Below are positions 11,232 through 38,931 of a stretch of DNA of 64,000 bases, in pieces. A model generated the notes under the pieces. That model did no database searches. It was not told the origin of the DNA and worked only from the letters and a program-made list of their open reading frames with translations. This DNA comes from an uncultured Actinomycetes bacterium (GTDB lineage Bacteria > Actinomycetota > Thermoleophilia > Solirubrobacterales > 70-9). Position numbers and translations under genes: made by a program. Within the stretch, counting starts at the first letter, position 1. The number at the start of each line of letters is the position of its first letter. The stretch spans positions 80 through 64,079 of the forward strand of contig CALERC010000361.1 in the NCBI GenBank assembly GCA_937908015.1, given 5' to 3'.

Positions 11232-11273
11232 TGCCGTCTGGTGCATGACGGTCATTCTGTACTATCGGCACAC

Positions 11274-11984
11274 ATGGCTAGCGACAACGGCTCCGATCCC
11301 GGTCTGCTCTCCCTCCGGGTCGGTCGGGTAGCCGCGCCCCTTCGCGGCCAGGTCCTCGACCTGGTCCGGCAGGGGATCCTCGACTTCCGCTACCAGCCCG
11401 GCCAGCGCCTGATCGAGCGCGAGCTGGTCGCCGAGATCGGCGTCTCCCGCACCACCGTGCGCGAGGTCCTGCGCGAGCTGGAGGCCGAGGGCCTGGTCAA
11501 ATCGATCCCCCAGAAAGGCGCGATCGTCGTCGTCCCGACCCCCGAGGAAGCCTCGGAACTGTACGAGGTGCGCTCGGCCCTGGAGCAGCTCGCGGTGCGC
11601 GCCTTCGTCGCCCACGCCACCGACGAGCAGGTGGCCGAACTGCGCGACACCTGCGAAGCCTTCGCCGCCGCCTCCGACGCCGGCGACACCACCCAGGCCC
11701 TCCTCCGCGCCAAGGACGCCTTCTACGAGGTCCTGCTCGAGGGCGCCGGCAACAGCGTCGTCCGCAGCATCCTCTCGAGCCTCCAGGCCCGGGTCCGCAT
11801 GCTCCGCGCCGCCTCGATGTCGAACCCCGACCGCGGCAAGAAGGTGCTCGCCGAGATCGGCGCCCTGGTCGGCGCGATCGAAGCCCGCGACGCCGACGCC
11901 GCCGCCGAGGCCTGCGCGCGGCACCTGGGCCAGGCCGAGCAGAGCGGGTTGGCGGGTATCTCGTCCTTCTCGGTCGACGCTTAG
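11274..11984 (+). CDS. GntR family transcriptional regulator (FadR-like, FCD C-terminal domain), paralog of 42923-43624
   Basis: 236 aa from ATG 11274. wHTH 'GQRLIERELVAEIGVSRTTVREVLRELEAEGLV'. TACTAT (11260-11265) lies 8 nt before the ATG and there is no RBS, so the transcript may be leaderless. The track ORF starts at 11241. Confidence 0.88.
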   Translation: MASDNGSDPGLLSLRVGRVAAPLRGQVLDLVRQGILDFRYQPGQRLIERELVAEIGVSRTTVREVLRELEAEGLVKSIPQKGAIVVVPTPEEASELYEVRSALEQLAVRAFVAHATDEQVAELRDTCEAFAAASDAGDTTQALLRAKDAFYEVLLEGAGNSVVRSILSSLQARVRMLRAASMSNPDRGKKVLAEIGALVGAIEARDADAAAEACARHLGQAEQSGLAGISSFSVDA

Positions 11985-12158: not shown

Positions 12159-12194
12159 GAGACGCCACGAAGTGACCCTTCCGTGACGCCCGAA

Positions 12195-12247
12195 ACGTTG
12201 ATGGGCCGAAAAGCGCTCTATATCAGCGCTTTTCGGCCCATCAACGT
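12195..12247. terminator. Perfect 23-bp inverted repeat (7-nt loop) between convergent genes; likely bidirectional terminator
   Basis: ACGTTGATGGGCCGAAAAGCGCT-ctatatc-AGCGCTTTTCGGCCCATCAACGT. On the minus strand it is followed by TTTC. It has noticeably lower GC than its surroundings. Confidence 0.55.
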
Positions 12248-12260
12248 CTGGGAGCTGTGG

Positions 12261-12270
12261 AGGTGTGACG
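12261..12270 (+). repeat. Short motif AGGTGTGACG (copy in spacer A)
   Basis: The same 10-mer occurs at 30579-30588 and 30756-30765, all in long noncoding spacers between convergent genes. Confidence 0.5.
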
Positions 12271-12402
12271 TCTCCCCGGAGAAGCGCGCGGGACCTGCGC
12301 ACTTCCCCCGAAAGCCTCGCGTCCTGGGCGTCTCGGGGGGACCACAGCCTGCCCGGGTCCCCGCGAGACGCCCAGGACGCACGATCCCCCGCCGGCGGGG
12401 GC

Positions 12403-13122
12403 CTACTGCGCCATCAGGCCGCCGTCGATCACCAGCTCGGTGCCGGTCACGAAGCTGGACTCGTCGCTGGCCAGGTAGAGGCTGCCGTAGGCGACCTCGA
12501 TCGGCTCGCCGCCGCGGTGCATCGGGGTGGTGTCGACCATCGACTGGTTCACCTCGGGGGCCTGGACGTCGGTGAGCGGGGTCTTGATGTAGCCGGGCAG
12601 GATCGCGTTGCAGCGGACGCCGTCGCCGACGTGGGTGAGGGCGACGTTGCGGCTCATGTTCAGGACCGCGGCCTTGGCGGCGTGGTAGGCGTGCGCGCCG
12701 GGGACGGCGACGCCGCCCCAGATCGAGGAGACGTTCACGATCGAGCCCCCGCCCGAGTCGATCATCGCCGGCAGCGACTCGCGCATGCCGAGGAAGACGC
12801 CGGTCTGGTCGACCGCGATCAGACGGTGCCAGTTCTCCAGGTCGAGCTCGAGGATCGGCTCGTAGGCGATCACCCCGGCGTTGTTGACGAGCACGTCGAG
12901 GCGACCGTGCTTGGCGACGATCCCGGCGACGACCTCCTTCCAGGCGTCCTCGCTGGAGACGTCGAGGGAGACGGCTTCGACCTCGGCCTCGTGCGGCTCG
13001 GGGTCGCGGACGTCGGCGCCGATCACGGTCGCGCCCTCCTTGGCGAAGAGCTCCGCGGTCGTGTGGCCCATCCCGCGCGCCGCGCCGGTGATCAGGCAAA
13101 CCTTGTCGTCGAGTCGTCCCAT
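12403..13122 (-). CDS. SDR family oxidoreductase
   Basis: 239 aa. 'KVCLITGAARGMGH', 'NNAG', 'YHAAKAAVLNMS'. Confidence 0.92.
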   Translation of the reverse strand: MGRLDDKVCLITGAARGMGHTTAELFAKEGATVIGADVRDPEPHEAEVEAVSLDVSSEDAWKEVVAGIVAKHGRLDVLVNNAGVIAYEPILELDLENWHRLIAVDQTGVFLGMRESLPAMIDSGGGSIVNVSSIWGGVAVPGAHAYHAAKAAVLNMSRNVALTHVGDGVRCNAILPGYIKTPLTDVQAPEVNQSMVDTTPMHRGGEPIEVAYGSLYLASDESSFVTGTELVIDGGLMAQ

Positions 13123-13168
13123 GGCTCCTGTCTTTCGTCGATTGATCTCAGTCTTGAACTGCGAGCGC

Positions 13169-14164
13169 CTACGGCGACTGCACCCCGGTGACGTTGAGGT
13201 AGGTCGCGTAGAGCGAGGTGGTGGCGGTGATGTAGAGGCGGTTCCGCTTCGGCCCGCCGAAGGTAAGGTTCGCGGTCGCCTCGGGGATCAGGATCTTGCC
13301 CAGCAGCCGCCCGTCGGCGGCGAAGCACTGGACCCCATCGCCGGCGCCGACCCAGAGCCGGCCGTCGCAGTCGATGCGGAAGCCGTCCGGGATCCCCGGC
13401 GTCACCTCGGCGAAGACCTCGCCATCGCCGAGGGAGTCGTCGTCGCCGACCTCGAAGGCGCGGATCTCGTGCCCCAGCTTCGGGTCGATCAGCCAGCCCG
13501 ACTCGGCGACGTAGAGCAGGCGCTCGTCCGGCGAGAAGGCGAGCCCGTTCGGCATCGCGAAATCGTCGACCATCAGCCTGACGCTGCCGTCGCACGGATC
13601 GACCCGGTAGACGCCGCAGCTCTCCTGCTCCTGACGGGCCTTGTTGCCGACGTACTCGGAGATGATCCCGAAGTTCGGGTCGGTGAACCAGATGCTGCCG
13701 TCGGACTTCACCACCACGTCGTTGGGCGAGTTCAGCGCGCCCCCTTCATAAGAGTCGGCGATGATCGTCAGCCGCCCGTCGGGCTCGTAGCGGACCACCC
13801 GGTTGCGGCCCTGCTCGCAGCTGAGGAGCCGGCCCTCGCGGTCGCGGGTGTTGCCGTTGCCGTTGCCGGTCGGCGCGCGGAGGACGTCGACAGTCCCCGA
13901 CTGCTCGTCGAAGCGCAGCAGCCGCTGGGTCGGGATGTCGCTGAACAGCAGGCACCGCATCTCGGCGAAGTAGACCGGCCCCTCGGCCCAGCGGCAACCG
14001 GTGTGGAGCTTCTCCACCCAGCCGACCGGGTCGATGCACTCCAGGAACTCGGGGTCGAGCACCTCGTAGGGATCGCCCGCGAGCCGCTCGCCCTGCAGCG
14101 GCTGGGCGGCGATGATGCCCGTCGCCGGTTCGCTGCGGAAGGGCCCCGCCTCCATCGCCGGCAC
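13169..14164 (-). CDS. SMP-30/gluconolactonase/LRE family lactonase
   Basis: 331 aa with a GTG start. 'AEGPVYF', 'NSPNDVVVKSDGSIWFTDP', 'PNGLAFSPDERLLYVAES', 'FGGPKRNRLYITA' beta-propeller motifs. It abuts the ALDH stop (14165). Confidence 0.9.
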   Translation of the reverse strand: MPAMEAGPFRSEPATGIIAAQPLQGERLAGDPYEVLDPEFLECIDPVGWVEKLHTGCRWAEGPVYFAEMRCLLFSDIPTQRLLRFDEQSGTVDVLRAPTGNGNGNTRDREGRLLSCEQGRNRVVRYEPDGRLTIIADSYEGGALNSPNDVVVKSDGSIWFTDPNFGIISEYVGNKARQEQESCGVYRVDPCDGSVRLMVDDFAMPNGLAFSPDERLLYVAESGWLIDPKLGHEIRAFEVGDDDSLGDGEVFAEVTPGIPDGFRIDCDGRLWVGAGDGVQCFAADGRLLGKILIPEATANLTFGGPKRNRLYITATTSLYATYLNVTGVQSP

Positions 14165-15673
14165 CTAGAGGCCGATGCAGACCGACTTGGTCTGCAGGTA
14201 GGAAGACACGCCTTCCTCGCCGAGTTCCTTGCCCCAGCCCGACTGCTTGAAGCCGCCGAAGGGGAGCGCCGAGGCGTTCAGCGAGTAGGTGTTGACCCAG
14301 ACCGTGCCGACGTCGAGGCGGGGCGCCAACTTGTGGACGCGGGAGACGTCGCGGGTCCAGATCCCGGCGGCGAGGCCGAAGGCGGTGTCGTTGGCGCGGG
14401 CCACGAGGTCGTCGAGGTCGGTGAAGCGGGTGACGCCGACGACCGGGCCGAAGATCTCCTCGCGCATGAAGCGCATGTCGGGGGCGACGTCGGTGAGGAT
14501 CGTCGGCTCGACGAAGAAGCCGCGCTCCCCCAGCCGGCCGCCGCCGGCGACGAGCTTCGCCCCTTCCTCGGTGGCGGCGCCCATGTAACCGGTGACCCGC
14601 TCCAGCTGCTCGGCCGAGACCAGTGGGCCGACCTCGCTGTCGGGGGCGAGGCCGGGGCCGACGCGGAGCGCCGCGGCGCGCTCGGCCAGCCCGGCGACGA
14701 GCTCGTCGTAGGCGCCCTCCTGGACGAAGAGGCGCGCCCCGGCGACGCAGTTCTGCCCCGCGTTGAAGAAGACCGCGTCGGCGGAGCCGGCGATCGCCGC
14801 CGGGAGGTCGGCGTCGTCGAAGACGATGTTCGGCGACTTGCCGCCCAGCTCCAGCGCCACCTTCTTCAGGTTGCCCGCGCTGGCCCGGACGATCTGCCGG
14901 CCGACCTCGGTCGAGCCGGTGAAGGTGACCTTGTCGACGTCGGGGTGGTCGGCGAGCGCCGCGCCCGCCGTCTCGCCGAAGCCCGGAACCACGTTGATCA
15001 CCCCGTCGGGGAAGCCGACCTCGGTCATCAGCTCACCGAGGAAGAGCGCCGTCAGCGGCGTCTGCTCAGCCGGCTTCAAGACGATCGTGCAGCCGGTCGC
15101 CAGCGCCGGCGCGACCTTCCAGGAGGTCATGAAGAGGGGGAAGTTCCAGGGCACGATCTGGCCGACGACGCCGATCGGTTGGCGTAGCGTGTAGGCGAAG
15201 AACTCGGCGTCGGGCTGCGGCGGCACGTCGAGCGGGATCGTCCGCCCCTCGAGCTTCGTCGCCCAGCCGGCCATGTAGCGGAAGACGTCGGCGCTCAACG
15301 GCACGACGGCGCCGCGGGCGACGCCGATCGGCATCCCGTTGTCCAGCGTCTCCAGCTCGGCGATCTTCTCCGCCTCGGCTTCGAGCCGGTCGGCGAGCGC
15401 CCAGATCAACCGCGCCCGCTCCGCCCCTGGCATCCGCGCCCAGGCCGGAGACTCGAAGGCGCGCCGGGCCGCCTTCACCGCCAGGTCGACGTCGGCGGCG
15501 GCGCCCTCGGCGACGTTCGCGATCACGTCCTCGCTGGCCGGGTCGATCACCTCGAAGCGCCGCCCCGACTGCGCCGGCACCCACTCGCCGCCGATCAGCA
15601 GGTCGCGGGTGCCGCCGAGGTAACCGCGCGTCCACTCGGAGACCGACTCGAGCCCCGGCATCTCAGTTGGCAT
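14165..15673 (-). CDS. NAD(P)-dependent aldehyde dehydrogenase
   Basis: 502 aa. 'FTGSTEVGRQI', 'ELGGKSPNIV', catalytic Cys region 'FNAGQNCVAG', 'EEIFGPV'. The alternative ATG at 15661 would remove the 11-nt overlap with the GMC gene. Confidence 0.93.
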   Translation of the reverse strand: MPTEMPGLESVSEWTRGYLGGTRDLLIGGEWVPAQSGRRFEVIDPASEDVIANVAEGAAADVDLAVKAARRAFESPAWARMPGAERARLIWALADRLEAEAEKIAELETLDNGMPIGVARGAVVPLSADVFRYMAGWATKLEGRTIPLDVPPQPDAEFFAYTLRQPIGVVGQIVPWNFPLFMTSWKVAPALATGCTIVLKPAEQTPLTALFLGELMTEVGFPDGVINVVPGFGETAGAALADHPDVDKVTFTGSTEVGRQIVRASAGNLKKVALELGGKSPNIVFDDADLPAAIAGSADAVFFNAGQNCVAGARLFVQEGAYDELVAGLAERAAALRVGPGLAPDSEVGPLVSAEQLERVTGYMGAATEEGAKLVAGGGRLGERGFFVEPTILTDVAPDMRFMREEIFGPVVGVTRFTDLDDLVARANDTAFGLAAGIWTRDVSRVHKLAPRLDVGTVWVNTYSLNASALPFGGFKQSGWGKELGEEGVSSYLQTKSVCIGL

Positions 15674-17258
15674 GGGCGGCGAGGATCCGGTCGGCCGCCC
15701 GCAGGGCCAGCGCCTGGACGGTGTTGGTGGGGTTGACGGCGGCGCCGGTCGGGAAGCTCGACCCGTCGACGACGTAGAGGTTCGGCACGTCGTGGGCGCG
15801 GTTGTCGGCGTTCACCACCGAGGTCTCGGGGTCGTCCCCCATCCGCACCGTGCCGAGCAGGTGCCAGCCGAGCAGGGTGTCGAAGCCGAGGTCCCGCACC
15901 GAGTCGGCGCCCGCCGCCTCGCAGAGCTCGCTCGCCCGCGCCACCATCTGCTTCGACATCGCGCGGCTGTTGTCGGAGAGCGTGTAGTCCGTGACCACCC
16001 CCGGCAGCCCGTAGGCGTCGGTGTTCTCCCAGTCGAGGGTGACCTGGTTCGTCAGCTCCGGCTCGTCGTCGCCGCAGACCCAGATCACGCCCTCGTGGTT
16101 CAGGTGGCGCTCCATCGCCTCGTGGTGGGCGGGCCCCCAGGGGGCGACCTGGAGCGCCGTCGTCAGCGGCGGGTAGCCGCGCATCGCCGCCATCATGAAG
16201 CCGCGCTTGAAATCACCCTTCGGGTCGCCGTCGTAGAACTGGCGCGTCGCGACGGCCCCGCCCCAGGCGCCCTGGTGGGCGTCGATGCGGTCCTCAAAGT
16301 GGCCGATCACCATCGTCTGCACGTGGGTCATCAGGTTCTTGCCGACCATCCCGCTGCTGTTCGCGAGCCCATCGGGGAACCGCGGGCTGGTCGACATCAG
16401 CAGGAGGCGCGGCGAGCCGAGCCCGTTGGCGCAGACGACGACCACCTTGGCGAGGACTTCGTGCAGCTGGCCGTGGCGGTCGTAGTAGACGGCGCCGCGG
16501 GCGTTGCCGTCGGCATCGACGGTGACCTCGCGCACGTGCGCCCCGGTCCGCAGCTCGGCCCCGCGCCGCAGCGCCGGCGCCAGGTAGATCTCCTCCGCAT
16601 AGGCGAGCGCGCTGTGCGGGCAGCCCGCGGTGCAGAAGCCGCGGTTCGTGCAGGCCTTGCGGCCACGGTAGTCCTCGCTGATGATCGCCTGCTCCTGCGG
16701 CCACCAGTACCAGCCGAGCTTCTCGAAGCCGTCGACCCACTTCTCCCCCAGCCGGCCGATCGGGATCGGCCCGGTCGGGGACTCGACGTCGCGGGGCGGG
16801 CCGGTCGGGTCGCCGCGCAGCCCCGCGGTCCCCATCTCGGCCTCGTTCAGGTCGTAGTAGGGAGCCAGGTCCTCGTAGGCGATCGGCCAGTCGACGCCGA
16901 AGCCGTCCAGAGTCTGGGCGCGGAAGTCGCTCGGGGCGAAGCGCCAGAAGTGGCCGCCGTAGCCGACCGCGCTGCCGCCGACCGCGGCGTAGATGAAGGC
17001 GTCGATCGGGTTGCCGCCGCGGGCGGTGACCGGGTAGTCGCCGTCCCAGCCGCGCACCGAGGGGCGCGGGTTGAAGTCGTGGCGCGCCCGCGCCTCCCAG
17101 TCGAGGTGGGTCTTCGGGCGCATCTCCGGGGTGACCCAGTCGCCCGCCTCGAGCACGAGGATGTCGAGGCCCTGGTCGGAGAGGCGCTTGGCGACCGCCG
17201 ACCCGGCACAGCCGGCGCCGACGACGAGGACGTCGAACTCCTCGCGCGCCGCCCTCAC
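15663..17258 (-). CDS. GMC family FAD-dependent oxidoreductase (large subunit)
   Basis: 531 aa from GTG 17258, which overlaps the upstream TGA (GTGA). 'FDVLVVGAGCAGSAVAKRLSDQGLDILVLEAG'; C-terminal 'HLLGTVRMGDDPETSVVN...NLYVVDGSSFPT'. The track ORF (663 aa) runs back through the upstream gene. Confidence 0.9.
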   Translation of the reverse strand: MRAAREEFDVLVVGAGCAGSAVAKRLSDQGLDILVLEAGDWVTPEMRPKTHLDWEARARHDFNPRPSVRGWDGDYPVTARGGNPIDAFIYAAVGGSAVGYGGHFWRFAPSDFRAQTLDGFGVDWPIAYEDLAPYYDLNEAEMGTAGLRGDPTGPPRDVESPTGPIPIGRLGEKWVDGFEKLGWYWWPQEQAIISEDYRGRKACTNRGFCTAGCPHSALAYAEEIYLAPALRRGAELRTGAHVREVTVDADGNARGAVYYDRHGQLHEVLAKVVVVCANGLGSPRLLLMSTSPRFPDGLANSSGMVGKNLMTHVQTMVIGHFEDRIDAHQGAWGGAVATRQFYDGDPKGDFKRGFMMAAMRGYPPLTTALQVAPWGPAHHEAMERHLNHEGVIWVCGDDEPELTNQVTLDWENTDAYGLPGVVTDYTLSDNSRAMSKQMVARASELCEAAGADSVRDLGFDTLLGWHLLGTVRMGDDPETSVVNADNRAHDVPNLYVVDGSSFPTGAAVNPTNTVQALALRAADRILAAHAN

Positions 17259-17797
17259 GCCTCGACCTCGCGGTAGTGCGGCGGCAGCGCCGCGACGCGG
17301 GCGAGCCGGCTCTGGTCGAAGGGCTCCATCGGCGAGCCGAGGTGCGGCAGCCGCGAGTCGAACCCGGTCCGCGCGCGCATCGCGTCGCAGACCCGCTCGT
17401 CGCGGTAGTAGGCCTCGTAGGTCAGCTCCAGGACCTGCTGAAAGGCGGCTTCGAAGCGCGGGTCGATCGAGACGTCGACCAGGATCCGGTCGCGCTCCTC
17501 GGGCGGGGCGGCGGCAAAGTCGGAGGCGCCCGCCTCGGCGGCGAGGCGGTCGAGGCGGTCGATCGCCAGCAGCACGGTCGGGCGCGCCGCCGGCGTGGTG
17601 GCGATCGCCGCGTCGACGTAGGCGGCGGCGCCCACCTCCGCCGCGCCCGGCCACTCGCCCGCGCCGGGGATCAGGCGGGCGACCCAGGCCTCCAGGGTCG
17701 GCCGGCGCGCCGCGTCGACCACCGCGAACTCGTGGACCTCGGCGGCGGCGACGTAGCTGCCCGCGGCGCCGAGGAACGCCGGGTCGGCGGCGATCAT
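17255..17797 (-). CDS. Gluconate 2-dehydrogenase subunit-3-like small subunit (no Tat signal)
   Basis: 180 aa from ATG 17797 (ATGA overlap with the CMD stop). 'LIPGAGEWPGAAEVGAAAYVDAAI...ERDRILVDV...FQQVLELTYEAYY' fits the subunit-3 family. The N-terminus 'MIAADPAFLGAAGS' has no twin-arginine motif. Confidence 0.7.
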   Translation of the reverse strand: MIAADPAFLGAAGSYVAAAEVHEFAVVDAARRPTLEAWVARLIPGAGEWPGAAEVGAAAYVDAAIATTPAARPTVLLAIDRLDRLAAEAGASDFAAAPPEERDRILVDVSIDPRFEAAFQQVLELTYEAYYRDERVCDAMRARTGFDSRLPHLGSPMEPFDQSRLARVAALPPHYREVEA

Positions 17798-18246
17798 TTG
17801 CCCTCGTCGGCGGAAACCTCGGGGTCCCGGGCCGGGGCCGAGCCGTCGGAGCCGTTGGCGGCCTCGCGCTCGCGGTCGACGGCGTCCAGCGTCTGGTCGG
17901 CGACCCGGAATGCCTCCAGCCCGGCCGGCATCCCGCAGTAGACCGAGGCCTGCAGCAGCGCCTCCTGGATCTCCTGCCGGGTGCAGCCGTTGCGGACCGC
18001 GCCGCGGACGTGGACCGCCAGCTCGTGCGAGCGGTTCAGCGCGGTCAGCATGCCGAGGTTGATCAGGCTCCGCTCGCGCAGGCTGAGCCCCTCGCGGGTC
18101 CAGATCTCCCCCCAGCAATAGCCGGTGGCCAGTTCCTGGATCGGCCGGGTGAACTCGCTGGCCCGGTCGAGCGAGCGCTGCACGTGGTCGTCGCCCAGCA
18201 CCTGCTTGCGCATCGCCAGGCCGCTCTCGTATTTGTTGTCGCTCAC
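17794..18246 (-). CDS. Carboxymuconolactone decarboxylase (CMD/PcaC-like) family protein
   Basis: 150 aa from GTG 18246 (GTGA overlap with the permease stop). 'YCWGEIWTREGLSLRERSLINLGMLTALNRSHELAVHVRGAVRNGCTRQEIQEALLQASVYCGMPAGLEAF'. Confidence 0.85.
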   Translation of the reverse strand: MSDNKYESGLAMRKQVLGDDHVQRSLDRASEFTRPIQELATGYCWGEIWTREGLSLRERSLINLGMLTALNRSHELAVHVRGAVRNGCTRQEIQEALLQASVYCGMPAGLEAFRVADQTLDAVDREREAANGSDGSAPARDPEVSADEGK

Positions 18247-19271
18247 GAACCCACCCGGACCTTGCGGGTCTCGGCGCGGGCGGCGAGCACGGCGGCCAGC
18301 AGGACGCTGCCGTTGAACACCGGCTGGATCCAGAACGGGACCCCCAACAGGCTGAGCCCGTTGAAGCCGACGGCGAGGACGAGGATGCCGACGATCGACC
18401 CGATCACGTTGTAGTAGCCGCCCTTGTAGGTGGTGACGCCGAGGAAGGCGCCGGCGTAGGCGGGCAGCAGGAGCTCGGGGCCGAACGAGGGGCTGGCGCT
18501 GCCGTTCTGGCCGAGCGCGAAGATCGCCCCGACGCCGACCAGCAGGCCGCCGAGCGCGAACGCCAGGCTCTTCAGTCGCTTCGTCCGCAGCCCGGCCAGG
18601 AATGACACTTTCTCCGAGCCGCCGATCGCGTACCACGACCGCCCTAATGGAGTGTGTTCCAGTACGTAGAAGAGGACGATGATCAGGGCGAGCGTGATCC
18701 ACACCGAGATCGAGACCGGGCCCGCGTACTTACGGCCGATGTCGATGACCACCCGGGGGATGTTCTGGGTGAGCACCGAACCGCCGCTCAACCCTTGGGT
18801 GAATCCCTGGAGGATGATGCCGACGCCGAGCGTGGCGATGAAGGAGCTGATGTGAGTGCGGTCGATCAGCACCGAGTTGATGAAGCCGATCAGCGCCCCG
18901 ACCCCGAGCATCACCAGCAGGATCGGCAGCACCGCCCAGTCGTGCCCGGCCAGGTAGGCGCCGAGCATCGAGATGAAGCCGACCATGTAGCCGACCGAGA
19001 GGTCGAACTCGCCGACGATCAGCGGCAGCATCACCCCGAGGGTCATGCAGGCGATCACCGTCTGCGTGATCAGGATGCTTTTGAAGTTGGTCCAGGTGAA
19101 GAAGGCTTCCGCGGTCAGCGCGAAGACCAGGATCAGGATCGCCAGAAGGAAGACGGTGCCGTACTGCCTGCCACCGCCGAGCACCTTCGCCAGCGCACTG
19201 CCACCGGTCGACCCGGAGGCCGCGCCGACGTTCGGTTGTTTCGTTTGGGGACTAGCTGACTCGACGCTCAT
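18243..19271 (-). CDS. CUT2 ABC transporter permease (RbsC-like)
   Basis: 342 aa from ATG 19271 (ATGA overlap with the ATPase stop). Multi-TM, Gly-rich branched-chain/sugar permease pattern. Confidence 0.88.
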   Translation of the reverse strand: MSVESASPQTKQPNVGAASGSTGGSALAKVLGGGRQYGTVFLLAILILVFALTAEAFFTWTNFKSILITQTVIACMTLGVMLPLIVGEFDLSVGYMVGFISMLGAYLAGHDWAVLPILLVMLGVGALIGFINSVLIDRTHISSFIATLGVGIILQGFTQGLSGGSVLTQNIPRVVIDIGRKYAGPVSISVWITLALIIVLFYVLEHTPLGRSWYAIGGSEKVSFLAGLRTKRLKSLAFALGGLLVGVGAIFALGQNGSASPSFGPELLLPAYAGAFLGVTTYKGGYYNVIGSIVGILVLAVGFNGLSLLGVPFWIQPVFNGSVLLAAVLAARAETRKVRVGS

Positions 19272-20902
19272 TTGGCATGTGACTCCGTGACGGTTTGCAG
19301 ATTCAGGTCGTCGCCGACCAGCTCTTTGGCGACCACCCCCTGTTCGAGGATCAGCACCCGATCGCAGAGGCGAACCAGTTGCTCGGGCTCGGTGGAGAAG
19401 AAGAGGACGCAGACGCCAAGCTGGGCCGCGTCCTTGATCGCGGCGAAGATCAGCTCGCGGGCCGCCGGGTCGACGCCGTAGGTCGGGTCGTCGAGACAGA
19501 GGATCGCCGGACGCAGCGCCAGCCACTTGCCCAGCAGCACCTTCTGCTGGTTGCCGCCGGAGAGCTCGCCCAGCTTCGTCGTCCGCTGCGGCGGCCGCAC
19601 GTCGAGCGCCTTGATCACCCCGTCGACCACCGACCGGTAGGTGGCCCGCTTGTGCCAGTACTTGCGCAGGTCGGGGAGCACCACGTTCTCGGCCACCGAG
19701 ATCGAGGCGACGCCGCCTTCGCGCAGGCGGTCGGAGGGGACGGTGGTGAGGCCGGCGCCGATCAGTTCGGCCGGGGTGACCCGCTTGCCCATCTTCTTGC
19801 CGTGGACGACGATCTCGCCGGCCTGCCGGGGGACGGAGCCGGAGAGGATCAACGGCAGCTCGTTGATGCCCGCATGCTGGACGCCGACGAAGCCGATCAC
19901 TTCTCCCGAGCGCGCGGTCAGGTCGACACCGCGCAGCTCGGAGCCGGCGATGCCCTTCAGCGAGAGCACCTCGACCCCGGCCTCGCGCTCGACCTCGGCC
20001 ACCTCGATCGGGGCGGAGCTTTCCCACAGCGTCAGCACCGGCCGGTGGCCGCTCTCGACGTCGGCCACCTCGGAGACATCTTCCGGCTCGGGGACCATCT
20101 CGGCGATCAGCTCGGGGATCGAGCGGCGCGGCCCGCCCGCCTGGTGGTAGACCAGCCGACCGTTGCGCAGGACGCTGACGTCGTCGGCGAAGTCGAGCTC
20201 CCCCAGCCGGTGGGTGACCATCACCACGGCGACGCCGCCGTCGGCGATCCGCCGCAGGCGCTGGAGGTGCTGCAAGGTTTCGTTGTCGGGGATCGAGGCG
20301 GTGACCTCGTCGACGATCAGCAGGCGGATCGCGTTCGGGTTGCCGCCCGCGATGAACTGGTCCCCCATCGCGATCGCCAGCGCCAGGCCGGCGCGGTCGG
20401 CGGGGCGGACCTGGGCGCAGAGCTCGTCGACGTCGACGTCGACCTCCATCCGCTCGAGCAGCTCGCGCACGTTGCGGCGCAGCTTGCGCCAGGGGATGCG
20501 GCCGAACGCGGTGCGCTCGTAGCCGCGGAAGATCGCCACCGACTCGAGCACGGTGAGCGTGTCGATCACCGGCGCCTCCTGGTGGACGACGCGGACGCCG
20601 AGCGCGTTGGCGCGGGCGGGCGGCGTCAGGTCGGAGTACGTCTCGCCGGCGAAGCGCAGGGTGCCGCTGGTCGGCGCCTGGACGCCGCTCATGATCTTCA
20701 CCAGCGTCGACTTGCCGCTGCCGTTGGCGCCGATCAGCCCGTGGATCTGCCCGGCCAGGACATCGACCCAGACGTCGCGTAGGGCCTGGACCGTGCCGAA
20801 GTCCATGCTCACGTCCTCGATCGCGAGGACCGGGGCCTCCGGGGCCACTACGGCCCCGGAGGCGACGCTCGCGATTCTTTGATCTGGAGCGATGTCGGTC
20901 AC
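19268..20902 (-). CDS. CUT2 ABC transporter ATP-binding protein (two fused ABC domains, RbsA-like)
   Basis: 544 aa. Walker A 'GANGSGKST', signature 'LSGGNQQK', Walker B 'LCLDDPT'. The first-domain Walker B is 'LLIVDEVT'. Confidence 0.93.
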   Translation of the reverse strand: MTDIAPDQRIASVASGAVVAPEAPVLAIEDVSMDFGTVQALRDVWVDVLAGQIHGLIGANGSGKSTLVKIMSGVQAPTSGTLRFAGETYSDLTPPARANALGVRVVHQEAPVIDTLTVLESVAIFRGYERTAFGRIPWRKLRRNVRELLERMEVDVDVDELCAQVRPADRAGLALAIAMGDQFIAGGNPNAIRLLIVDEVTASIPDNETLQHLQRLRRIADGGVAVVMVTHRLGELDFADDVSVLRNGRLVYHQAGGPRRSIPELIAEMVPEPEDVSEVADVESGHRPVLTLWESSAPIEVAEVEREAGVEVLSLKGIAGSELRGVDLTARSGEVIGFVGVQHAGINELPLILSGSVPRQAGEIVVHGKKMGKRVTPAELIGAGLTTVPSDRLREGGVASISVAENVVLPDLRKYWHKRATYRSVVDGVIKALDVRPPQRTTKLGELSGGNQQKVLLGKWLALRPAILCLDDPTYGVDPAARELIFAAIKDAAQLGVCVLFFSTEPEQLVRLCDRVLILEQGVVAKELVGDDLNLQTVTESHAK

Positions 20903-20909
20903 CGCTTCG

Positions 20910-22151
20910 TTATTTCCAGAGCTTTTCGAATTCAGGACGGAATTCGAAAGGCGCCTTGTACGCCTGCCCTTCGGGCGGCAGGTTGTTCTTGTCGACCAGC
21001 TGGAACGGGATGTTCTCGCCCTGCGGCTCGAACGGCTTCTGCCCGTCCAGCACCCGCAGCGCCTGGTCGACCACGGCCCAACCGACGTAGAGCTCGTCGT
21101 AGGAACCGTCGGCCGCCTGGACTTCTTCGTTGCGGATGAATTCCAGGTTCTGTTCGTTGCCGAGCAGCGAGACCAGCTTCACCTTTTCGCCGAGACCGGC
21201 GGTCTCGATCGCGGTGACCATCGCCGGCGCGGCGGGGTCATACGGACAGAAGATGTATTCGACTTCCGGATGGGTCCGGAGGTAGCCGACGACTTCTTCG
21301 CCGAAGTTGGTCGCGAGCGAGCTCGAGAGGAAGTAGATCGGGCCGTCCGTGGTGCAGCCTTCGCACGCTTCCAGGGTTTCCATCACCCCTTCGGTCTGCG
21401 GCGGCAGCGCCGGGAACTCTTTGGTCCCGTAGACGACCGTGTTCGCCTTGCCTTCCGAGTCGGCGATGATCCAGCTCGCCTCGTATTCGCCGGCGAGCTT
21501 GTAGTCGACACCGACGTCGAACGAGGTCCACACGTCCCCGGCCGGGGGCTTGCGCGTCTTGTTCGGGCTGTTGGTGCCGTTGACCGCGCCGCCGACGACG
21601 ATGCCAGCCTTCTGCGCTGCCGCCAGGCCCGTCTGGACCGTGGTCGGGTCGATCGCCTCGAGGATGATCGCTTCGGCGCCCCAGCTGATCGCGTTCAGGA
21701 TCTGCTTGTTCTGGGTGGTGGTTTCGCCCTGGCCGTCGAAGACCTTCACCGTCACGCCCGCCGCTTCGCCGGCTTCTTCGATCCCTTCCGCGATTTCCTT
21801 GCACCCCTGCAACGTCTGGGCGCAGCTGATCGCGGCGATTTTCGTGCCGGGTTTGGCCGGAGCCGGTTCGGTCGGGCCTTCGTATTTGCTCGGCGTGACT
21901 TCGGTGGCTTCTTTCAGCAGCGCCGAATAGTCTTCGCCGCCGCCGGCTTCTTCACCGCCGGCTTCTTCACCTTCGGCTTCGGTTTCGGTTTCCGCGGCGG
22001 GCGTGCTTTCGCCGCCGGCTTCGGATTCTTCCGCCGTGGTCGAACTACTGGAACTGCTGCTGCCCGAACTCGAACCACAGGCGGACAGCACCATTGCCGC
22101 GGCGAAGACAAGCAGCGCCAAGCACAGCAACTTCCGACTAGATGACGACAT
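20910..22151 (-). CDS. CUT2-type solute-binding lipoprotein, paralog 2 (with cognate transporter)
   Basis: 413 aa from ATG 22151, with RBS GAGGAGAG. Lipobox 'LSAC', Ser/Glu-rich linker, C-terminus 'FEKLWK'. Confidence 0.9.
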   Translation of the reverse strand: MSSSSRKLLCLALLVFAAAMVLSACGSSSGSSSSSSSTTAEESEAGGESTPAAETETEAEGEEAGGEEAGGGEDYSALLKEATEVTPSKYEGPTEPAPAKPGTKIAAISCAQTLQGCKEIAEGIEEAGEAAGVTVKVFDGQGETTTQNKQILNAISWGAEAIILEAIDPTTVQTGLAAAQKAGIVVGGAVNGTNSPNKTRKPPAGDVWTSFDVGVDYKLAGEYEASWIIADSEGKANTVVYGTKEFPALPPQTEGVMETLEACEGCTTDGPIYFLSSSLATNFGEEVVGYLRTHPEVEYIFCPYDPAAPAMVTAIETAGLGEKVKLVSLLGNEQNLEFIRNEEVQAADGSYDELYVGWAVVDQALRVLDGQKPFEPQGENIPFQLVDKNNLPPEGQAYKAPFEFRPEFEKLWK

Positions 22152-22178
22152 ATCTCTCCTCATTTGTTTCTCTCCTCC

Positions 22179-23840
22179 TCAGACCGCGGCGGTGCCGGCA
22201 CCGGCCTCGGCGCCCGACCGCATCTCAAATCCCTCGTAGCCCTGCGCGGCGACCTCGGCGCAGCGCTTGCGGTATTCCCCCACCCCGCCGATGTACGGCA
22301 CGAACCGGAACGGCTTCCCCGGGGTGTTGGCGCCCATGTACCAAGATTTCGTCCGCGTCAGCAGGGTGGTGTTGGCGACGTCGTCGACGTGCTGGGTCCA
22401 CTCCTCCTCGGCGGCCAGGTTGGCCTCGATGCGATCAACGCCGTTCTCCTTCGCGTACTGGAGGCAGTCGAGGACCCACTCGATGTGCTGTTCGATCGAG
22501 GTCGGCATGTTCGACAGCACCGAAGGGCTGCCGGGGCCGGTGATCATGAACAGGTTCGGGAACCCGTGGGTCGAGAGGCCGAGGTAGGTCGACGGCGCGC
22601 CCGCCCACTTATCGGCCAGTCGGGCGCCCGCGGAGGTGTGGATGTCGATCTTGTCCAGCGACCCGGTCATCGTGTCGAAGCCGGTCGCGTAGATGATCAC
22701 GTCGAGGTCGATCTCCTCGGCGGCGGTGCGGATGCCCGCCTCGGTGACCTCCTCGATCGGCGCCGAGCGGATGTCGACCAGGTGCACGTTGTCCTGGTTG
22801 AACGTCTCGAAGTACTCGGCGTCGAGCGGCGGGCGCTTCGTCCCGATCGCGTGGTCGCGCGGCGTCAGCAGCTCGGCCGTGTCCGGGTCCTCGACGACGG
22901 CGCGGATCTTCTCGCGCACGAACTCGGCCACAGTCTCGTTCGCGGCCTCGTCGACGACCAGGTCTTCGTAGCCGCCGAAGAGCAGTTTGAAGCCGCCGTA
23001 GTCCCAGTCTTCTTCGTAGGTGGCGAGGCGCTCCTCGTCGGAGACGCTGAGGGCGGACATCGGGCGCGGTTCGACCAGGTTGCCGGTCGGGGTGTAACGC
23101 GCCTCCTCGCGCAGCTCCATGCAGTTGGCCTTGATCCGCGCCTTCTCCTCCGCGGTCAGCGGCCGGTTGCGGTTCGGGATGCTGTAGTTGGCGGTGCGCT
23201 GGAAGACGTAGAGCTCGCCGACTTCTTTCGCGATCGGCGGGATGATCTGGATGCCGGTCGAGCCGGTCCCGATCACGCCCACCCGCAGGCCGGTGAGGTC
23301 GACGCCCTCGTGCGGCCACTGCGCCGTGTGGTACTGCTTGCCAGCAAAGCTGTGGATACCGGGGATGTCGGGCATCTGCGCCGCCGAGAGGCAGCCGACG
23401 CCGGTGATCAGGTACCGGCAGCTGACCTCCTCGCCGCCCGCGGTCTTCACCGTCCAGATGCCGGAGTCCGCGTCCACGGTGGCCGCCGCGATCCGGGTGT
23501 TGAAGCTGATGTCCTTGCGCAGGTCGTAGCGGTCGGCGAAGTGGTTCAGGTAAGAGAGCACTTCGGGGCCGTTGGGGTAGCGGGACTTGTACTCCCACTC
23601 TTCCATCAGGTCCTGGTCGAAGCCGAACTGGTACACCGTCGCTTCGGAGTCGCAGCAGATCCCCGGGTAACGGTTCCAGTACCACGTCCCGCCGACGTTG
23701 TCGCCGGTCTCGTAGACGTGGGCGGTGAAGCCGGCGCGGCCGAGCTGCTGCAGCATCCCGAGCCCGGAGAACCCGGCGCCGATGATGACGGCGTCGTAGT
23801 CCACCCCGCCCGCCTGGTCGTTGTTGGTCGTCTCAGCCAT
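22179..23840 (-). CDS. Type I Baeyer-Villiger monooxygenase (cyclohexanone/phenylacetone monooxygenase-like)
   Basis: 553 aa. 'DAVIIGAGFSGLG', 'GGTWYWNRYPGICCD', BVMO fingerprint 'FAGKQYHTAQWP' (FxGxxxHxxxWP), second Rossmann 'VIGTGSTG'. Confidence 0.93.
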   Translation of the reverse strand: MAETTNNDQAGGVDYDAVIIGAGFSGLGMLQQLGRAGFTAHVYETGDNVGGTWYWNRYPGICCDSEATVYQFGFDQDLMEEWEYKSRYPNGPEVLSYLNHFADRYDLRKDISFNTRIAAATVDADSGIWTVKTAGGEEVSCRYLITGVGCLSAAQMPDIPGIHSFAGKQYHTAQWPHEGVDLTGLRVGVIGTGSTGIQIIPPIAKEVGELYVFQRTANYSIPNRNRPLTAEEKARIKANCMELREEARYTPTGNLVEPRPMSALSVSDEERLATYEEDWDYGGFKLLFGGYEDLVVDEAANETVAEFVREKIRAVVEDPDTAELLTPRDHAIGTKRPPLDAEYFETFNQDNVHLVDIRSAPIEEVTEAGIRTAAEEIDLDVIIYATGFDTMTGSLDKIDIHTSAGARLADKWAGAPSTYLGLSTHGFPNLFMITGPGSPSVLSNMPTSIEQHIEWVLDCLQYAKENGVDRIEANLAAEEEWTQHVDDVANTTLLTRTKSWYMGANTPGKPFRFVPYIGGVGEYRKRCAEVAAQGYEGFEMRSGAEAGAGTAAV

Positions 23841-24816
23841 CGGTCTCTCCTTGGGCTCCGGTTGCGGTTGCGGCTTTGGCGCTCCAGCCTTTGATGAAGC
23901 TCGCGAGGTCCCCGAGCAGCTCGTGGCCGAAATCCATGACCCCGTTCATCCAGAAGAAGCCGTGGATGGCGCCGGGGAAGACCTTCAGCTCGATGTCGAC
24001 GCCGGCGTTCTGGAGGCGCTCGGCGTAGGCGATGCCCTCGTCGCGGAGCGGGTCGAACTCGGCGGTGATCACCATCCCGGGCGGCAGGCCGGTGAGGTCG
24101 TCGGCGAGCAGCGGCGAGGCGTAGGGGTCGCGGGCCTGCTCGATCGAGGTGACGTAGTGCTCCCAGAACCAGCGCATGTCGCCGCGGGTGACCATGTAGC
24201 CCTCGCCGTTGTCGACGTAGGACTGGTGCGGGCTCTCGTGCTCGGGCGCGGTGACCGGGTAGAGCAGCAGCTGGTAGGAGATGTGCGGGCCGCCGCGGTC
24301 GCGGGCCATCAGCGTCACCGCCGCGGCGAGGTTGCCGCCGGCGCTGTCGCCGCTGATCCCGACCTGGCCGCGGTCGAAGCCGACCTCGTCGGCGTGCTCG
24401 ACCAGCCAGCGGGTCGCCGCATAGCAGTCCTCCACCGGGCCGGGGAATTTCGTCTCCGGGCTGAGCCGGTAGCCGACCGCGGCGACCATGCATTCGGCCG
24501 CGTTGGCGAGCTCGCGGCAGGGACGGTCGACGACGGCGATGCTGCCCATCACCCAGCCGCCGCCGTGCAGGTAGATGACCAACGGCAGGGTCTTGCCGGG
24601 GGCCGGGTTGTAGATGCGGACCGGGATCTCCCCCGCGTCGCCCTCGCCGGGGACGAGGATGTCGCGGACCTCGGCCACCTCCTGGACGTCGCCCTGGATT
24701 TCTTCCAGCCCCGCCTCGAAGGCGCGGGCTTCGAGCACGGACATCTCGTAGAAGGCGGGCGTACCTTCGTCCTGCAGCTGTTTCAAGAAGGCCTCGGCCT
24801 GGGGGTGTAGTGGCAT
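23833..24816 (-). CDS. Alpha/beta hydrolase, HSL-family (family IV) esterase
   Basis: 327 aa from ATG 24816, with RBS AAGGGAACGGAGAG. 'YLHGGGWVMGS' oxyanion motif and 'GDSAGGNLA' nucleophile elbow. It overlaps the BVMO start by 8 nt. The track ORF (455 aa) is over-extended. Confidence 0.9.
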   Translation of the reverse strand: MPLHPQAEAFLKQLQDEGTPAFYEMSVLEARAFEAGLEEIQGDVQEVAEVRDILVPGEGDAGEIPVRIYNPAPGKTLPLVIYLHGGGWVMGSIAVVDRPCRELANAAECMVAAVGYRLSPETKFPGPVEDCYAATRWLVEHADEVGFDRGQVGISGDSAGGNLAAAVTLMARDRGGPHISYQLLLYPVTAPEHESPHQSYVDNGEGYMVTRGDMRWFWEHYVTSIEQARDPYASPLLADDLTGLPPGMVITAEFDPLRDEGIAYAERLQNAGVDIELKVFPGAIHGFFWMNGVMDFGHELLGDLASFIKGWSAKAATATGAQGETDG

Positions 24817-24906: not shown

Positions 24907-24943
24907 CACATCGTCATACAACCTGGCAGTCGGGCGATAAGTT
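24907..24943 (+). promoter_or_regulatory. Promoter/operator cassette copy C with GntR-type box TCGTCATACAA (24911-24921)
   Basis: CACATCGTCATACAACCTGGCAGTCGGGCGATAAGTT aligns without gaps to copy A (29/37 identical by my count). TAAGTT (24938-24943) is a possible -10. It lies between the esterase-BVMO operon (-) and the O-methyltransferase (+). Confidence 0.55.
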
Positions 24944-24955: not shown

Positions 24956-25714
24956 GTGAGGGCGCAACCAGGTCCGGATCCGGCTCTACGGAGGGGTTTG
25001 AGCGATGAAGCGGCAGCCTGGAAGACGATCGACGAGAAGCTCGCCGACCTCCTGATCGAGGCCGATCCGGCGCTCGACGGCGTCCGCGAGCAAGCCCTGT
25101 CCATCGGCCTCCCCGACCACGGGATCTCGGCCGGCCAGGGCCGCCTGCTGGAGGTCCTGGCCCGCGCCGCCGGCGCGGGCCGGATCCTCGAGATCGGCAC
25201 CTTCGCCGGCTACAGCACGATCTGGCTGGCCCGGGCGCTGCCGTTCCGGGGACGGCTGCTGACCCTGGAGCTGGACCCGGCGCGGGCCGAGCTGGCGCGC
25301 CGCAACCTCGAGGCGGCCGGCGTCGGGGGCAGGGTCGAGGTGCGGGTCGGCGACGCGCTGGCGGCACTCGACGCCCTGATCGCCGCGGGCGAGGAGCCCT
25401 TCGACCTCGTCTTCATCGACGCCGACAAGGAGCGCAACCCCGAGTACCTGGAACGGGTCCTGGAGTTGACCTGCCCCGGCGCGACGATCGTCGCCGACAA
25501 CGTGATCCGCGCCGGCGCGGTGTTCGATCCCGAGATCGAGGACCCGGAGCTGGACGCCGCAGGCCACGAAGGCCTGCGGCGCTTCCTCGAGCTGCTCGGC
25601 ACAGACCCCCGACTGGACGCCGCCGCCTTCCAGACGGTCGGCGAGAAGGGCCACGACGGCTTCGCTATCGCGGTCGTCCGGCGTCCGGACGGGTCGACGC
25701 CCGCGCTTCCCTGA
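24956..25714 (+). CDS. Class I SAM-dependent O-methyltransferase (family 3, caffeoyl-CoA OMT-like)
   Basis: 'RILEIGTFAGYSTIWLARAL...LTLELDP...FDLVFIDADKERNPEYLE...GATIVADNV'. The start is uncertain: GTG 24956 or in-frame TTG 24998. Confidence 0.85.
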   Translation: MRAQPGPDPALRRGLSDEAAAWKTIDEKLADLLIEADPALDGVREQALSIGLPDHGISAGQGRLLEVLARAAGAGRILEIGTFAGYSTIWLARALPFRGRLLTLELDPARAELARRNLEAAGVGGRVEVRVGDALAALDALIAAGEEPFDLVFIDADKERNPEYLERVLELTCPGATIVADNVIRAGAVFDPEIEDPELDAAGHEGLRRFLELLGTDPRLDAAAFQTVGEKGHDGFAIAVVRRPDGSTPALP

Positions 25715-38927: not shown

Positions 38928-38931
38928 CGGT

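Follow-up and report, generated by a model that had tools for sequence, protein, structure and literature searches.

Eleven genes packed on the minus strand of the window (the whole 64,000-nucleotide stretch analysed), from position 24816 down to 12403, join a type I Baeyer-Villiger monooxygenase (BVMO) and an esterase to a CUT2-type ABC importer, in an arrangement whose predicted transcript structure supports a single operon. The gene order is esterase, BVMO, substrate-binding protein (SBP), ATPase, permease, CMD-family protein, dehydrogenase small subunit, GMC flavoprotein, aldehyde dehydrogenase (ALDH), SMP-30/gluconolactonase-family lactonase (SGL) and short-chain dehydrogenase (SDR), with all named domains found by Pfam and NCBIfam. 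We rate the chances as about even that these genes form a single operon under GntR control for the catabolism of a small polar compound needing import. Such a nutrient would probably be degraded by chemistry that is usual for oily ketones.

The junctions comprise six overlaps, one abutting pair and three gaps of 7–46 nt; in gene order, the distances are −8, +15, +7, −4, −4, −4, −4, −11, 0 and +46 nt. A preliminary description of this DNA had reported overlaps or short gaps from the esterase to the lactonase, and the measured distances bear this out. The esterase and BVMO genes overlap by 8 nt, a 7-nt gap separates the SBP from the ATPase, and the ATGA or GTGA overlaps that it had placed at 19268–19271, 18243–18246, 17794–17797 and 17255–17258 were confirmed as the 4-nt ATPase/permease, permease/CMD, CMD/small subunit and small subunit/GMC junctions. 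ALDH and SGL abut at 14164/14165, and the SDR follows SGL after 46 nt, as described; an 11-nt GMC/ALDH overlap (15663–15673) had been absent from the list. The BVMO–SBP gap does hold only a ribosome-binding site, but its reported length of 27 nt is probably too long. The SBP has two in-frame ATGs, at 22163 and 22151, and GGAGGAG lies 8 nt upstream of the first, which by sequence is the more likely start; the gap is 15 nt from 22163 and 27 nt from 22151. Internal terminators, which might have split the BVMO and esterase from the transporter, were not predicted on the minus strand of the operon, and no Rfam elements were found within 11–31 kb. Three strong hairpins lie 3′ of the SDR stop codon; two long hairpins there (12190–12380), formed by inverted repeats of 28 nt (12190–12252) and 25 nt (12319–12380) that are 93–96% complementary, probably mark the transcript end. 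GC3 is uniform across the enzymes (0.91–0.98), which argues against recent mosaic insertion.

The arrangement recurs in other genomes. A metagenome contig (L088) carries all 11 genes in order, with the same divergent O-methyltransferase (OMT) and convergent GntR regulator, at 66–91% amino-acid identity; its SDR is 91% identical and in the equivalent position. A Solirubrobacteraceae MAG (L001/L194) has a 10-gene core at 60–77% identity in the order EST-BVMO-SBP-ATP-PERM...CMD...GDH3-GMC-ALDH-SGL, in which the esterase-to-permease block is intact despite insertions elsewhere. The BVMO orthologs are 75% (L088) and 61% (L001) identical. The preserved order in L088, together with the preserved core in L001/L194, shows that the arrangement did not arise by chance alone; the conserved clusters descend from one origin and thus represent one evolutionary instance, not three. 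The host is a soil actinobacterium. Rarity was assessed with 25 loci for BVMOs like phenylacetone monooxygenase (PAMO), drawn from 400 other Actinomycetota genomes. None of the 25 had a CUT2 gene within 1.5 kb of the BVMO, whereas 11 had an esterase partner beside it. The neighbourhood comparison that the preliminary description had proposed therefore shows a BVMO/esterase–CUT2 linkage that is kept in its own lineage of clusters and seen at no other sampled PAMO-like locus. No published cluster of this kind was found in the literature.

The SBP (20910–22163) is a 417-residue lipoprotein of the Peripla_BP_4 family (Pfam E 2.5e-29), with an LSAC lipobox and a Ser/Glu/Gly-rich linker at about residues 30–77. 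Its AlphaFold model (pLDDT 85.6) has the ribose-binding-protein fold, with target-normalised TM-scores of 0.84–0.88 at identities of 15–22%; 22% is the highest identity of any solved SBP to it. The 544-residue ATPase (19268–20902) contains two fused ABC domains (ABC_tran in two stretches), and its best NCBIfam matches, LsrA, AraG, XylG and RbsA, each fall below cut-off. The 342-residue permease (18243–19271) is RbsC/AraH/GguB-like (BPD_transp_2 E 9.7e-29). A double-ABC polypeptide, a PF02653 permease and a PF13407 class I binding protein constitute the CUT2 (TC 3.A.1.2) architecture, and a monosaccharide, polyol or similar ligand would fit the gene context. RbsABC, AraFGH, XylFGH and LsrACDB share the fused double ATPase, BPD_transp_2 permease and Peripla_BP_4 SBP with the ribose-binding-protein fold. 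Unlike them, the operon's SBP clade is accompanied by lactonase-type hydrolases, and three SBP paralogs apparently serve a single permease/ATPase pair. Of 54 loci with SBP relatives at 40–55% identity, 40 have a gene for an MBL-lactonase-like or cyclase-family protein no more than 6 kb away; kinases (FGGY, Dak and APH) and regulators (LacI/DeoR) also occur near these relatives.

The esterase (23833–24816, 327 residues; Abhydrolase_3 E 3.6e-77) belongs to family IV, the hormone-sensitive-lipase type. The HGGG and GDSAGG motifs noted previously were located at residues 84 and 156, the latter supplying the GxSxG elbow, and the protein scores 390.9 bits against NCBIfam LipP1 (cut-off 350); its best PDB matches are Est8/EST2-like (E 8e-77). 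The 553-residue BVMO (22179–23840) is PAMO/STMO-like. It aligns with PDB 1w4x over residues 13–539 with a single gap (E 5e-185), a better match than to cyclohexanone monooxygenases (E ~1e-150), and is about 57% identical to PAMO, with the PAMO-type loop retained. The canonical FxGxxxHxxxWP fingerprint, also reported earlier, occurs as FAGKQYHTAQWP at residues 165–176, between two Rossmann GxGxxG motifs (GAGFSG, 21–26; GTGSTG, 191–196). The second motif, [A/G]GxWxxxx[F/Y]P[G/M]xxxD, is present as GGTWYWNRYPGICCD at residue 50, and D64 and R336 align with the catalytic D66 and R337 of PAMO. By these sequence features, the protein is a predicted type I BVMO (class B flavoprotein monooxygenase). 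Its SBP-linked clade has pocket changes of its own, R64C, I67S, L338P and I339P (PAMO numbering), which are missing from PAMO and from a paralog-like BVMO in locus L082.

The remaining enzymes follow the permease. The CMD-family protein (17794–18246, 150 residues; PF02627 E 7.9e-24; PDB matches 4g9q and 2af7) scores 146.7 bits against TIGR02425, under the cut-off of 155.7, and is therefore PcaC-like and not assignable to the PcaC family. The small subunit (17255–17797, 180 residues) is of the Gluconate_2-dh3 family (PF13618 E 6.6e-14), and its large subunit (15663–17258, 531 residues) is a GMC flavoprotein of the fructose/glucose dehydrogenase type, closest by PDB matches to 7w2j (E 2e-58) and 6a2u_B (E 2.3e-55). 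In alignment with fructose dehydrogenase, C203-x5-C209-x3-C213 coincides with the Cys cluster, and the catalytic His is also retained; in the solved enzymes, this motif binds a 3Fe-4S cluster, as it presumably does here. Gluconobacter fructose dehydrogenase, Burkholderia FAD-glucose dehydrogenase and gluconate 2-dehydrogenase likewise pair a GMC protein with a Gluconate_2-dh3 small subunit and have the Cys cluster and catalytic His. Those heterotrimeric enzymes, however, have a twin-arginine signal and a cytochrome c subunit. The N terminus of the operon's small subunit contains no RR motif and none of the 11 genes encodes a cytochrome, so that the GMC enzyme is predicted to be cytoplasmic and was not assigned to the full membrane-complex type; no recognisable electron-acceptor subunit for the pair was found. 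The NAD(P)-dependent ALDH (14165–15673, 502 residues; Aldedh E 4e-180) is closest in NCBIfam to the phenylacetaldehyde dehydrogenase StyD, at 607.5 bits (cut-off 850). SGL (13169–14164, 331 residues; SGL E 1.8e-50) is closest in the PDB to the gluconolactonases 3dr2 (E 4.5e-56) and 3e5z. The SDR (12403–13122, 239 residues; adh_short_C2 E 7.5e-62) is the last gene. No sugar-acid dehydratase was found in the window and no kinase in the operon; like the missing electron-acceptor subunit, these absences weigh against the reading favoured here.

The region between the esterase and the divergent OMT gene (24907–24943) contains a FadR/GntR-type box, TCGTCATACAA, at 24911–24921, 95 nt upstream of the esterase start codon, and is predicted to hold the promoter and operator. 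The box occurs four times in the window (0.15 expected). Its conservation extends to L088 and L090, with a related box, TNGTATGACNA (operon orientation), at the equivalent site in L088. The cation-dependent OMT (24956–25714, plus strand; Methyltransf_3 E 6.5e-38), which has this region in common with the operon, gives a catechol-type methyltransferase match and is also divergent beside the esterase in L088 (66% identity). Three other operons in the window are preceded by the box, and two of these begin with paralogous SBPs on the minus strand. One paralog (8121–9500; box 9494–9504) is 66% identical to the operon SBP and is not accompanied by its own permease or ATPase; the other (28322–29584; box 29679–29689), at 65% identity, heads an SBP/FMN-dehydrogenase/aldo-keto-reductase operon. 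All three SBPs appear to use one permease/ATPase pair in common. The candidate repressor, with GntR and FCD domains (11241–11984, plus strand), is convergent with the operon; it has paralogs at 29805–30533 and 42923–43624 and an ortholog at the equivalent position in L088 (76% identity). The common GntR operator, the two extra SBP paralogs and more lactonase and CMD genes are context beyond the preliminary description.

A catabolic route can be proposed from these assignments. An extracellular substrate would be captured by the lipoprotein SBP and imported through the single permease/ATPase pair, to which the two nearby SBP paralogs probably supply related compounds. The SDR would convert a secondary alcohol to a ketone, unless the substrate is a ketone already, and the NADPH/FAD-dependent BVMO would insert oxygen beside the carbonyl to give a lactone or ester. 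The translationally coupled esterase and the gluconolactonase-like SGL would cleave ester and lactone bonds; the Fe-S-type GMC dehydrogenase, with both subunits in the cytoplasm, and ALDH would oxidise the alcohol so released, via the aldehyde, to the carboxylate, and the PcaC-like protein may decarboxylate or isomerise a lactone intermediate. Carbohydrates are suggested by the SBP context, SGL and the two GMC dehydrogenase subunits, and the most likely substrate is a carbohydrate derivative that is itself a cyclic alcohol, ketone or keto-lactone; examples are a ketone formed from a cyclitol, an alpha-dicarbonyl derivative of a sugar, and a keto sugar acid or lactone. The preliminary description's proposal that a polar, carbohydrate-like ketone is imported and undergoes Baeyer-Villiger oxidation is plausible: the SBP fold and context, SGL and GMC fit it, while the PAMO-like BVMO and StyD-like ALDH point rather to an aryl or alkyl ketone. 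The pocket changes in the SBP-linked BVMO clade also count towards a carbohydrate or lactone substrate. Nothing points specifically to the keto-cyclitol that the preliminary description gave as an example.

In the serious rival, a reading that we consider rather unlikely, the substrate would be acyclic: an aryl-alkyl ketone or an aliphatic methyl ketone (or the secondary alcohol) that is polar enough to need an importer. Oxidation would then be sub-terminal: the BVMO would act on the ketone made by the SDR and produce an aryl ester or an acetate, from which the esterase would free a primary alcohol for oxidation to the acid by GMC and ALDH. Aryl ketones from lignin or plants are compatible with this route. 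Hydrophobic aryl or steroid ketones are the substrates of PAMO and steroid monooxygenase, the nearest characterised relatives of the BVMO, and the closeness of the BVMO to PAMO, including the loop, together with an ALDH nearest StyD, is what keeps this rival in contention. BVMO-esterase pairs are also frequent at the sampled PAMO-like loci, and names from aromatic catabolism recur among the best matches (ALDH, PcaC for CMD, the conserved catechol-type OMT and HpaI for the regulon aldolase), which counts against a carbohydrate. However, the window contains no ring-hydroxylating or ring-cleaving oxygenase, the SBP fold and family contexts are of the carbohydrate/lactone type, and the GMC protein has a small subunit and belongs to the sugar-dehydrogenase type, as opposed to the aryl-alcohol oxidase type. 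SGL, superfluous for a simple ester route, is kept in all three clusters.

Alternatively, the operon could be a functional mosaic in which the importer, lactonase, GMC and ALDH handle a sugar, sugar lactone or sugar acid, and the BVMO and esterase a co-regulated but unrelated ketone. SBP relatives at 40–55% identity do occur without any BVMO, and BVMO-esterase pairs stand alone elsewhere. We find this improbable, given the short BVMO–SBP gap, the esterase-to-permease order in two further clusters despite the L001 insertions, and the BVMO clade's own pocket substitutions. Scavenging or destruction of lactone or dicarbonyl signals, as in Lsr import of AI-2 (candidates being gamma-butyrolactones, acyl-homoserine lactones, AI-2-like diketones and butenolides), is very improbable. 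In its favour, LsrA is the top match of the ATPase, the MBL proteins encoded beside members of the SBP clade hit lactonase models exclusively (AiiA, AttM, AidB and 4-pyridoxolactonase) and high-affinity uptake would suit low-concentration ligands. However, the ATPase scores 278 with LsrA, for which the cut-off is 586, every lactonase match is far under its cut-off, and the regulon's dehydrogenases, aldolase and CoA enzymes suggest carbon assimilation.

The proposed route resembles known systems in part. In chnABCDE (Acinetobacter) and cpn (Comamonas), a secondary-alcohol dehydrogenase, type I BVMO, lactone hydrolase, alcohol dehydrogenase and ALDH lead to a dicarboxylate, and the reaction logic is alike. 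In contrast, the operon's BVMO is nearer PAMO/STMO than CHMOs, a GMC enzyme of the Fe-S type, with two subunits, takes the place of a ChnD-type ADH in alcohol oxidation, and the operon has two hydrolases (esterase and SGL) and an internal CUT2 importer; to our knowledge, chn and cpn have no such importer. Membership of the chn/cpn-type cycloalkanone clusters was rejected because the BVMO is not of the CHMO/CPMO clade and the alcohol oxidiser is of the GMC type. The ketone-to-ester pairs of PAMO, acmAB (Gordonia), mekAB (Pseudomonas veronii) and hapED resemble the operon in that an alpha/beta-hydrolase esterase is adjacent or coupled to the BVMO. These systems act on volatile or hydrophobic substrates, for which a binding-protein-dependent importer is unnecessary. 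In blcABC/attKLM (Agrobacterium), an MBL lactonase, a hydroxy-acid dehydrogenase and an ALDH turn gamma-butyrolactone into a dicarboxylate; we know of no BVMO, ABC importer or GMC enzyme in blc. MBL and HIBADH pairs and an ALDH are likewise present in the operon's regulon and inside the L001 cluster. The same regulon contains further lactonase and CMD genes, an HpaI-like aldolase, CoA enzymes and many dehydrogenases of the central-metabolism type.

The 11 minus-strand genes running from 24816 down to 12403 form a packed unit, as the preliminary description had proposed on the basis of their spacing; Pfam and NCBIfam assignments and the measured junctions bear this out. The unit opens with an esterase (EST, 23833–24816; Abhydrolase_3, with the LipP1 model above its cut-off) and a Baeyer-Villiger monooxygenase (BVMO, 22179–23840; FMO-like/Pyr_redox_3). 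These are followed by a sugar-type (CUT2) ABC importer, comprising a Peripla_BP_4 substrate-binding protein (SBP, 20910–22163), a double ABC ATPase (19268–20902), and a BPD_transp_2 permease (18243–19271). The remaining genes encode a PcaC-like CMD family protein (17794–18246), a Gluconate_2-dh3 small subunit (17255–17797), a GMC flavoprotein (15663–17258), an aldehyde dehydrogenase (ALDH, 14165–15673), a lactonase of the SMP-30/gluconolactonase family (SGL, 13169–14164), and a short-chain dehydrogenase (SDR, 12403–13122). From EST to SDR, the junctions measure −8, +15, +7, −4, −4, −4, −4, −11, 0, and +46 nt. The earlier junction list was correct overall, except that it omitted the 11-nt overlap between GMC and ALDH and probably misplaced the SBP start. 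For the SBP, the most likely start is the ATG at 22163, which has GGAGGAG 8 nt upstream. The motifs previously named for the BVMO (FxGxxxHxxxWP) and the esterase (HGGG and GDSAGG) were found in the proteins. No minus-strand terminator-like site was predicted inside the operon, the spacer 3′ of the SDR stop codon is filled by three long hairpins, and no Rfam elements were detected within 11–31 kb. GC3 is 0.91–0.98 in all operon enzymes and 0.81–0.85 in all three SBP paralogs of the region. With GC3 this uniform across the operon, a recent mosaic seems unlikely, and recent insertion was rejected. Upstream of the operon, a divergent O-methyltransferase gene (OMT, 24956–25714, plus strand) converges with a minus-strand aldo-keto reductase gene, and their 3′ ends overlap by ∼50 nt (25665–25714).

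Conservation of the cluster was assessed with 160 loci, collected by an SBP-alignment scan of species-representative genomes and a scan of metagenome contigs, and compared with the window proteins by tblastn. The closest database homologs include P0010 (72% identity), which lies on an 89-kb contig. A 29.6-kb metagenome contig (L088) carries the divergent OMT and 11/11 genes in the same order, together with convergent SDR and GntR genes; identities to the window are 66–91% overall and 72–75% for BVMO, esterase, and SBP. The closest genome with the cluster is a Solirubrobacteraceae MAG (locus L001 and its extension, L194). Here, EST-BVMO-SBP-ATPase-permease is followed by GntR and CMD, then by an inserted HIBADH-MBL-ALDH′-HIBADH block, and finally by small subunit-GMC-ALDH (73%)-SGL (65%). 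The insertions leave the block from EST to permease unbroken, and the 10-gene core therefore survives down to 61% BVMO and SBP identity. Replacement of SGL by the MBL lactonase in L001 was ruled out, since the extended locus contains, a little further downstream, both SGL and the ALDH ortholog. L001 also has a HIBADH-like gene, the first of its cluster (14924–15836), that is split across two overlapping frames, possibly by a frameshift or sequencing error. A truncated third copy of the cluster (L089) encodes an SBP that is 81% identical. The position of a BVMO beside a CUT2 SBP, which the preliminary description had singled out, is thus kept in both L088 and L001/L194. As the L088, L001/L194, and L089 clusters share one origin, they represent a single evolutionary instance, maintained by selection.

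The linkage of BVMO to importer is unusual as well as conserved. Among 201 genomes of the same order (the source MAG included), no BVMO ortholog was found elsewhere, the best other match being 52% identical, and genomes of the same genus had none. A further 400 genomes were sampled across the phylum, 18 of which yielded 25 loci with BVMOs resembling phenylacetone monooxygenase (PAMO). An Abhydrolase_3 esterase adjoins the BVMO at 11 of these loci, and a CUT2 gene occurs within the 1.5-kb flanks at none (0/25); the BVMO-esterase pair is therefore ordinary and the importer link is not. No description of a cluster of this kind was found in the open-access literature. The window comes from contig C361 of a MAG (G000; 5.1 Mb, 441 contigs, 88% complete, 6.6% contaminated). 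The three genomes of the same genus, which lack the BVMO, are 2.6–2.7 Mb in size, compared with 5.1 Mb for G000; perhaps the bin combines more than one organism, or its assignment to the genus is loose.

The BVMO aligned with PAMO over residues 13–539 with one gap (∼57% identity by eye) and keeps the catalytic Asp and Arg as well as a PAMO-type loop (S441-A442 region). Four pocket changes (R64C, I67S, L338P, and I339P, PAMO numbering) are common to the three SBP-linked BVMO orthologs and absent from PAMO and from L082, a BVMO of the same order. From the alignment, these changes hint at a different, possibly more polar substrate. SGL is nearest to gluconolactonases, and the GMC large subunit is nearest to those of fructose and glucose dehydrogenases, with which it shares the catalytic His and an aligned Cys-x5-Cys-x3-Cys cluster. 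Since the small subunit of this pair (15663–17797) carries no twin-arginine signal and a cytochrome gene is absent nearby, a cytoplasmic location is predicted for the enzyme; it resembles a normally periplasmic complex in cytoplasmic form. The CMD protein scored just under the PcaC cut-off, and the ALDH is generic, with StyD nearest.

A long linker, acidic and rich in Ser, characterizes the SBP, a lipoprotein whose model (pLDDT 85.6) adopts the fold of the ribose-binding protein. It shares only 15–22% identity with any solved SBP, which means that its ligand cannot be read from homology. Two further lipoprotein SBPs, SBP1 (8121–9500, minus strand) and SBP3 (28322–29584, minus strand), are 65–66% identical to the operon SBP, and all three lie within 21 kb. 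Neither SBP1 nor SBP3 is accompanied by its own permease or ATPase and, with one CUT2 pair among three SBPs, both probably use that of the operon. In the L001 genome, the clade is represented by a single SBP. The window contains another complete CUT2 system (58908–62594, minus strand), made up of a permease, an ATPase, and an SBP that is only 27% identical to that of the operon.

Gene context was more informative. Among SBP relatives at 40–55% identity (L003–L025 and L092–L133), an MBL-lactonase-like or PF04199 cyclase-family gene is present in 40/54 loci (MBL-fold in 23/54 and PF04199 in 17/54, within 6 kb), and none of the 54 has a BVMO. The association is lost below 40% identity (5/40 loci, then 1/60). 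Kinases (FGGY, Dak1/Dak2, or APH) and LacI or DeoR regulators are frequent further neighbors, and GntR-UTRA regulators also occur. From this context, small carbohydrate-like molecules are the apparent cargo of the clade, and hydrolysis of a lactone-like bond would be the first step inside the cell. In public annotation, the 40–55% clade is labeled as "ribose" binding proteins.

In the pathway that we envisage, the substrate would be imported and, if needed, made into a ketone by the SDR. The BVMO would then insert oxygen, EST and SGL would hydrolyze the product, GMC and ALDH would take the freed alcohol to the carboxylate, and the CMD protein would process a lactone intermediate. This logic is the same as that of cycloalkanol pathways, although the operon falls outside that family. 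The preliminary description envisaged Baeyer-Villiger chemistry on an imported polar, carbohydrate-like ketone; this is plausible from gene content, although the closest relatives of the BVMO speak against it. We place about even weight on a carbohydrate-derived cyclic ketone or keto-lactone as the substrate. More tentatively, the oxidation may serve as the ring- or chain-opening step for a carbohydrate-derived nutrient: after import, a keto-cyclitol, keto sugar lactone, or α-dicarbonyl sugar derivative would become a lactone, ester, or anhydride, to be hydrolyzed by esterase and lactonase. Inosose or dehydroascorbate/2,3-diketogulonate are possible candidates; no BVMO acting on inosose or a sugar ketone was found in the open-access literature. 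A polar aryl or alkyl ketone, rather unlikely in our estimate, would sit more easily with the BVMO's relatives and less easily with the cargo suggested by the SBP clade. A mosaic operon serving two substrates would accommodate BVMO-esterase pairs that occur apart from importers and fits poorly with the conserved layout; we consider it improbable. For four MBL proteins (two in the window and two beside SBP relatives), the best models were AiiA, AttM, AidB, and 4-pyridoxolactonase, all far below cut-offs, and a signal-scavenging role is a minor alternative.

To our knowledge, most BVMOs, among them those of the widely used PAMO clade, have no assigned physiological substrate, and the BVMO pathways known to us handle ketones that are hydrophobic or volatile. 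The present operon combines a PAMO-like BVMO with a high-affinity importer in a conserved layout, and the SBP ligand should point straight to the substrate that the enzyme uses in nature. Were that ligand carbohydrate-derived, it would add oxygen insertion to the routes by which carbohydrates or cyclitols are broken down and yield BVMOs that suit polar substrates; polar metabolites would then be among the natural substrates of PAMO-like BVMOs, and the SBP clade would form a subfamily within CUT2 with specificity for lactones or cyclic ketones. The lactonase-type company of the clade may help to annotate many soil-bacterial transporters now labeled "ribose".

The operon also appears to share its control with neighboring genes. 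The FadR subfamily of GntR regulators has the consensus TNGTNNNACNA, which is matched by the 11-mer TCGTCATACAA at 9494–9504, 24911–24921, 29679–29689 (one mismatch), and 42791–42801, where 0.15 occurrences are expected by chance. Every copy sits in a divergent promoter region at the head of a minus-strand operon: SBP1 with an SDR; the esterase operon; SBP3 with an FMN-dependent dehydrogenase and an aldo-keto reductase; and a long operon (31011–42801). The latter encodes two MBL-lactonase-like and HIBADH-like pairs, a tandem CMD protein, a cupin, a 130-aa protein without a family match, a mycofactocin-type SDR, a Zn-ADH, a 1024-aa GlcD/GlcF-like flavoprotein, a cyclase-family protein, and an HpcH-type aldolase. 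Kindred boxes lie upstream of the esterase in L088 (∼7207) and of the SBP1 ortholog in another compared locus, L090 (∼4232). The shared putative operator at four promoter regions points to one regulon of ∼35 kb, with three GntR/FCD genes (11241–11984, 29805–30533, and 42923–43624). Mandelate or mycofactocin assignments for the FMN-dependent dehydrogenase and GMC were rejected, as scores were far below family cut-offs. Two SDRs (10398–11231, plus strand, and 36719–37879, minus strand) matched the mycofactocin-coupled SDR model TIGR03971 with 360.7 and 326.3 bits, respectively (cut-off 300).
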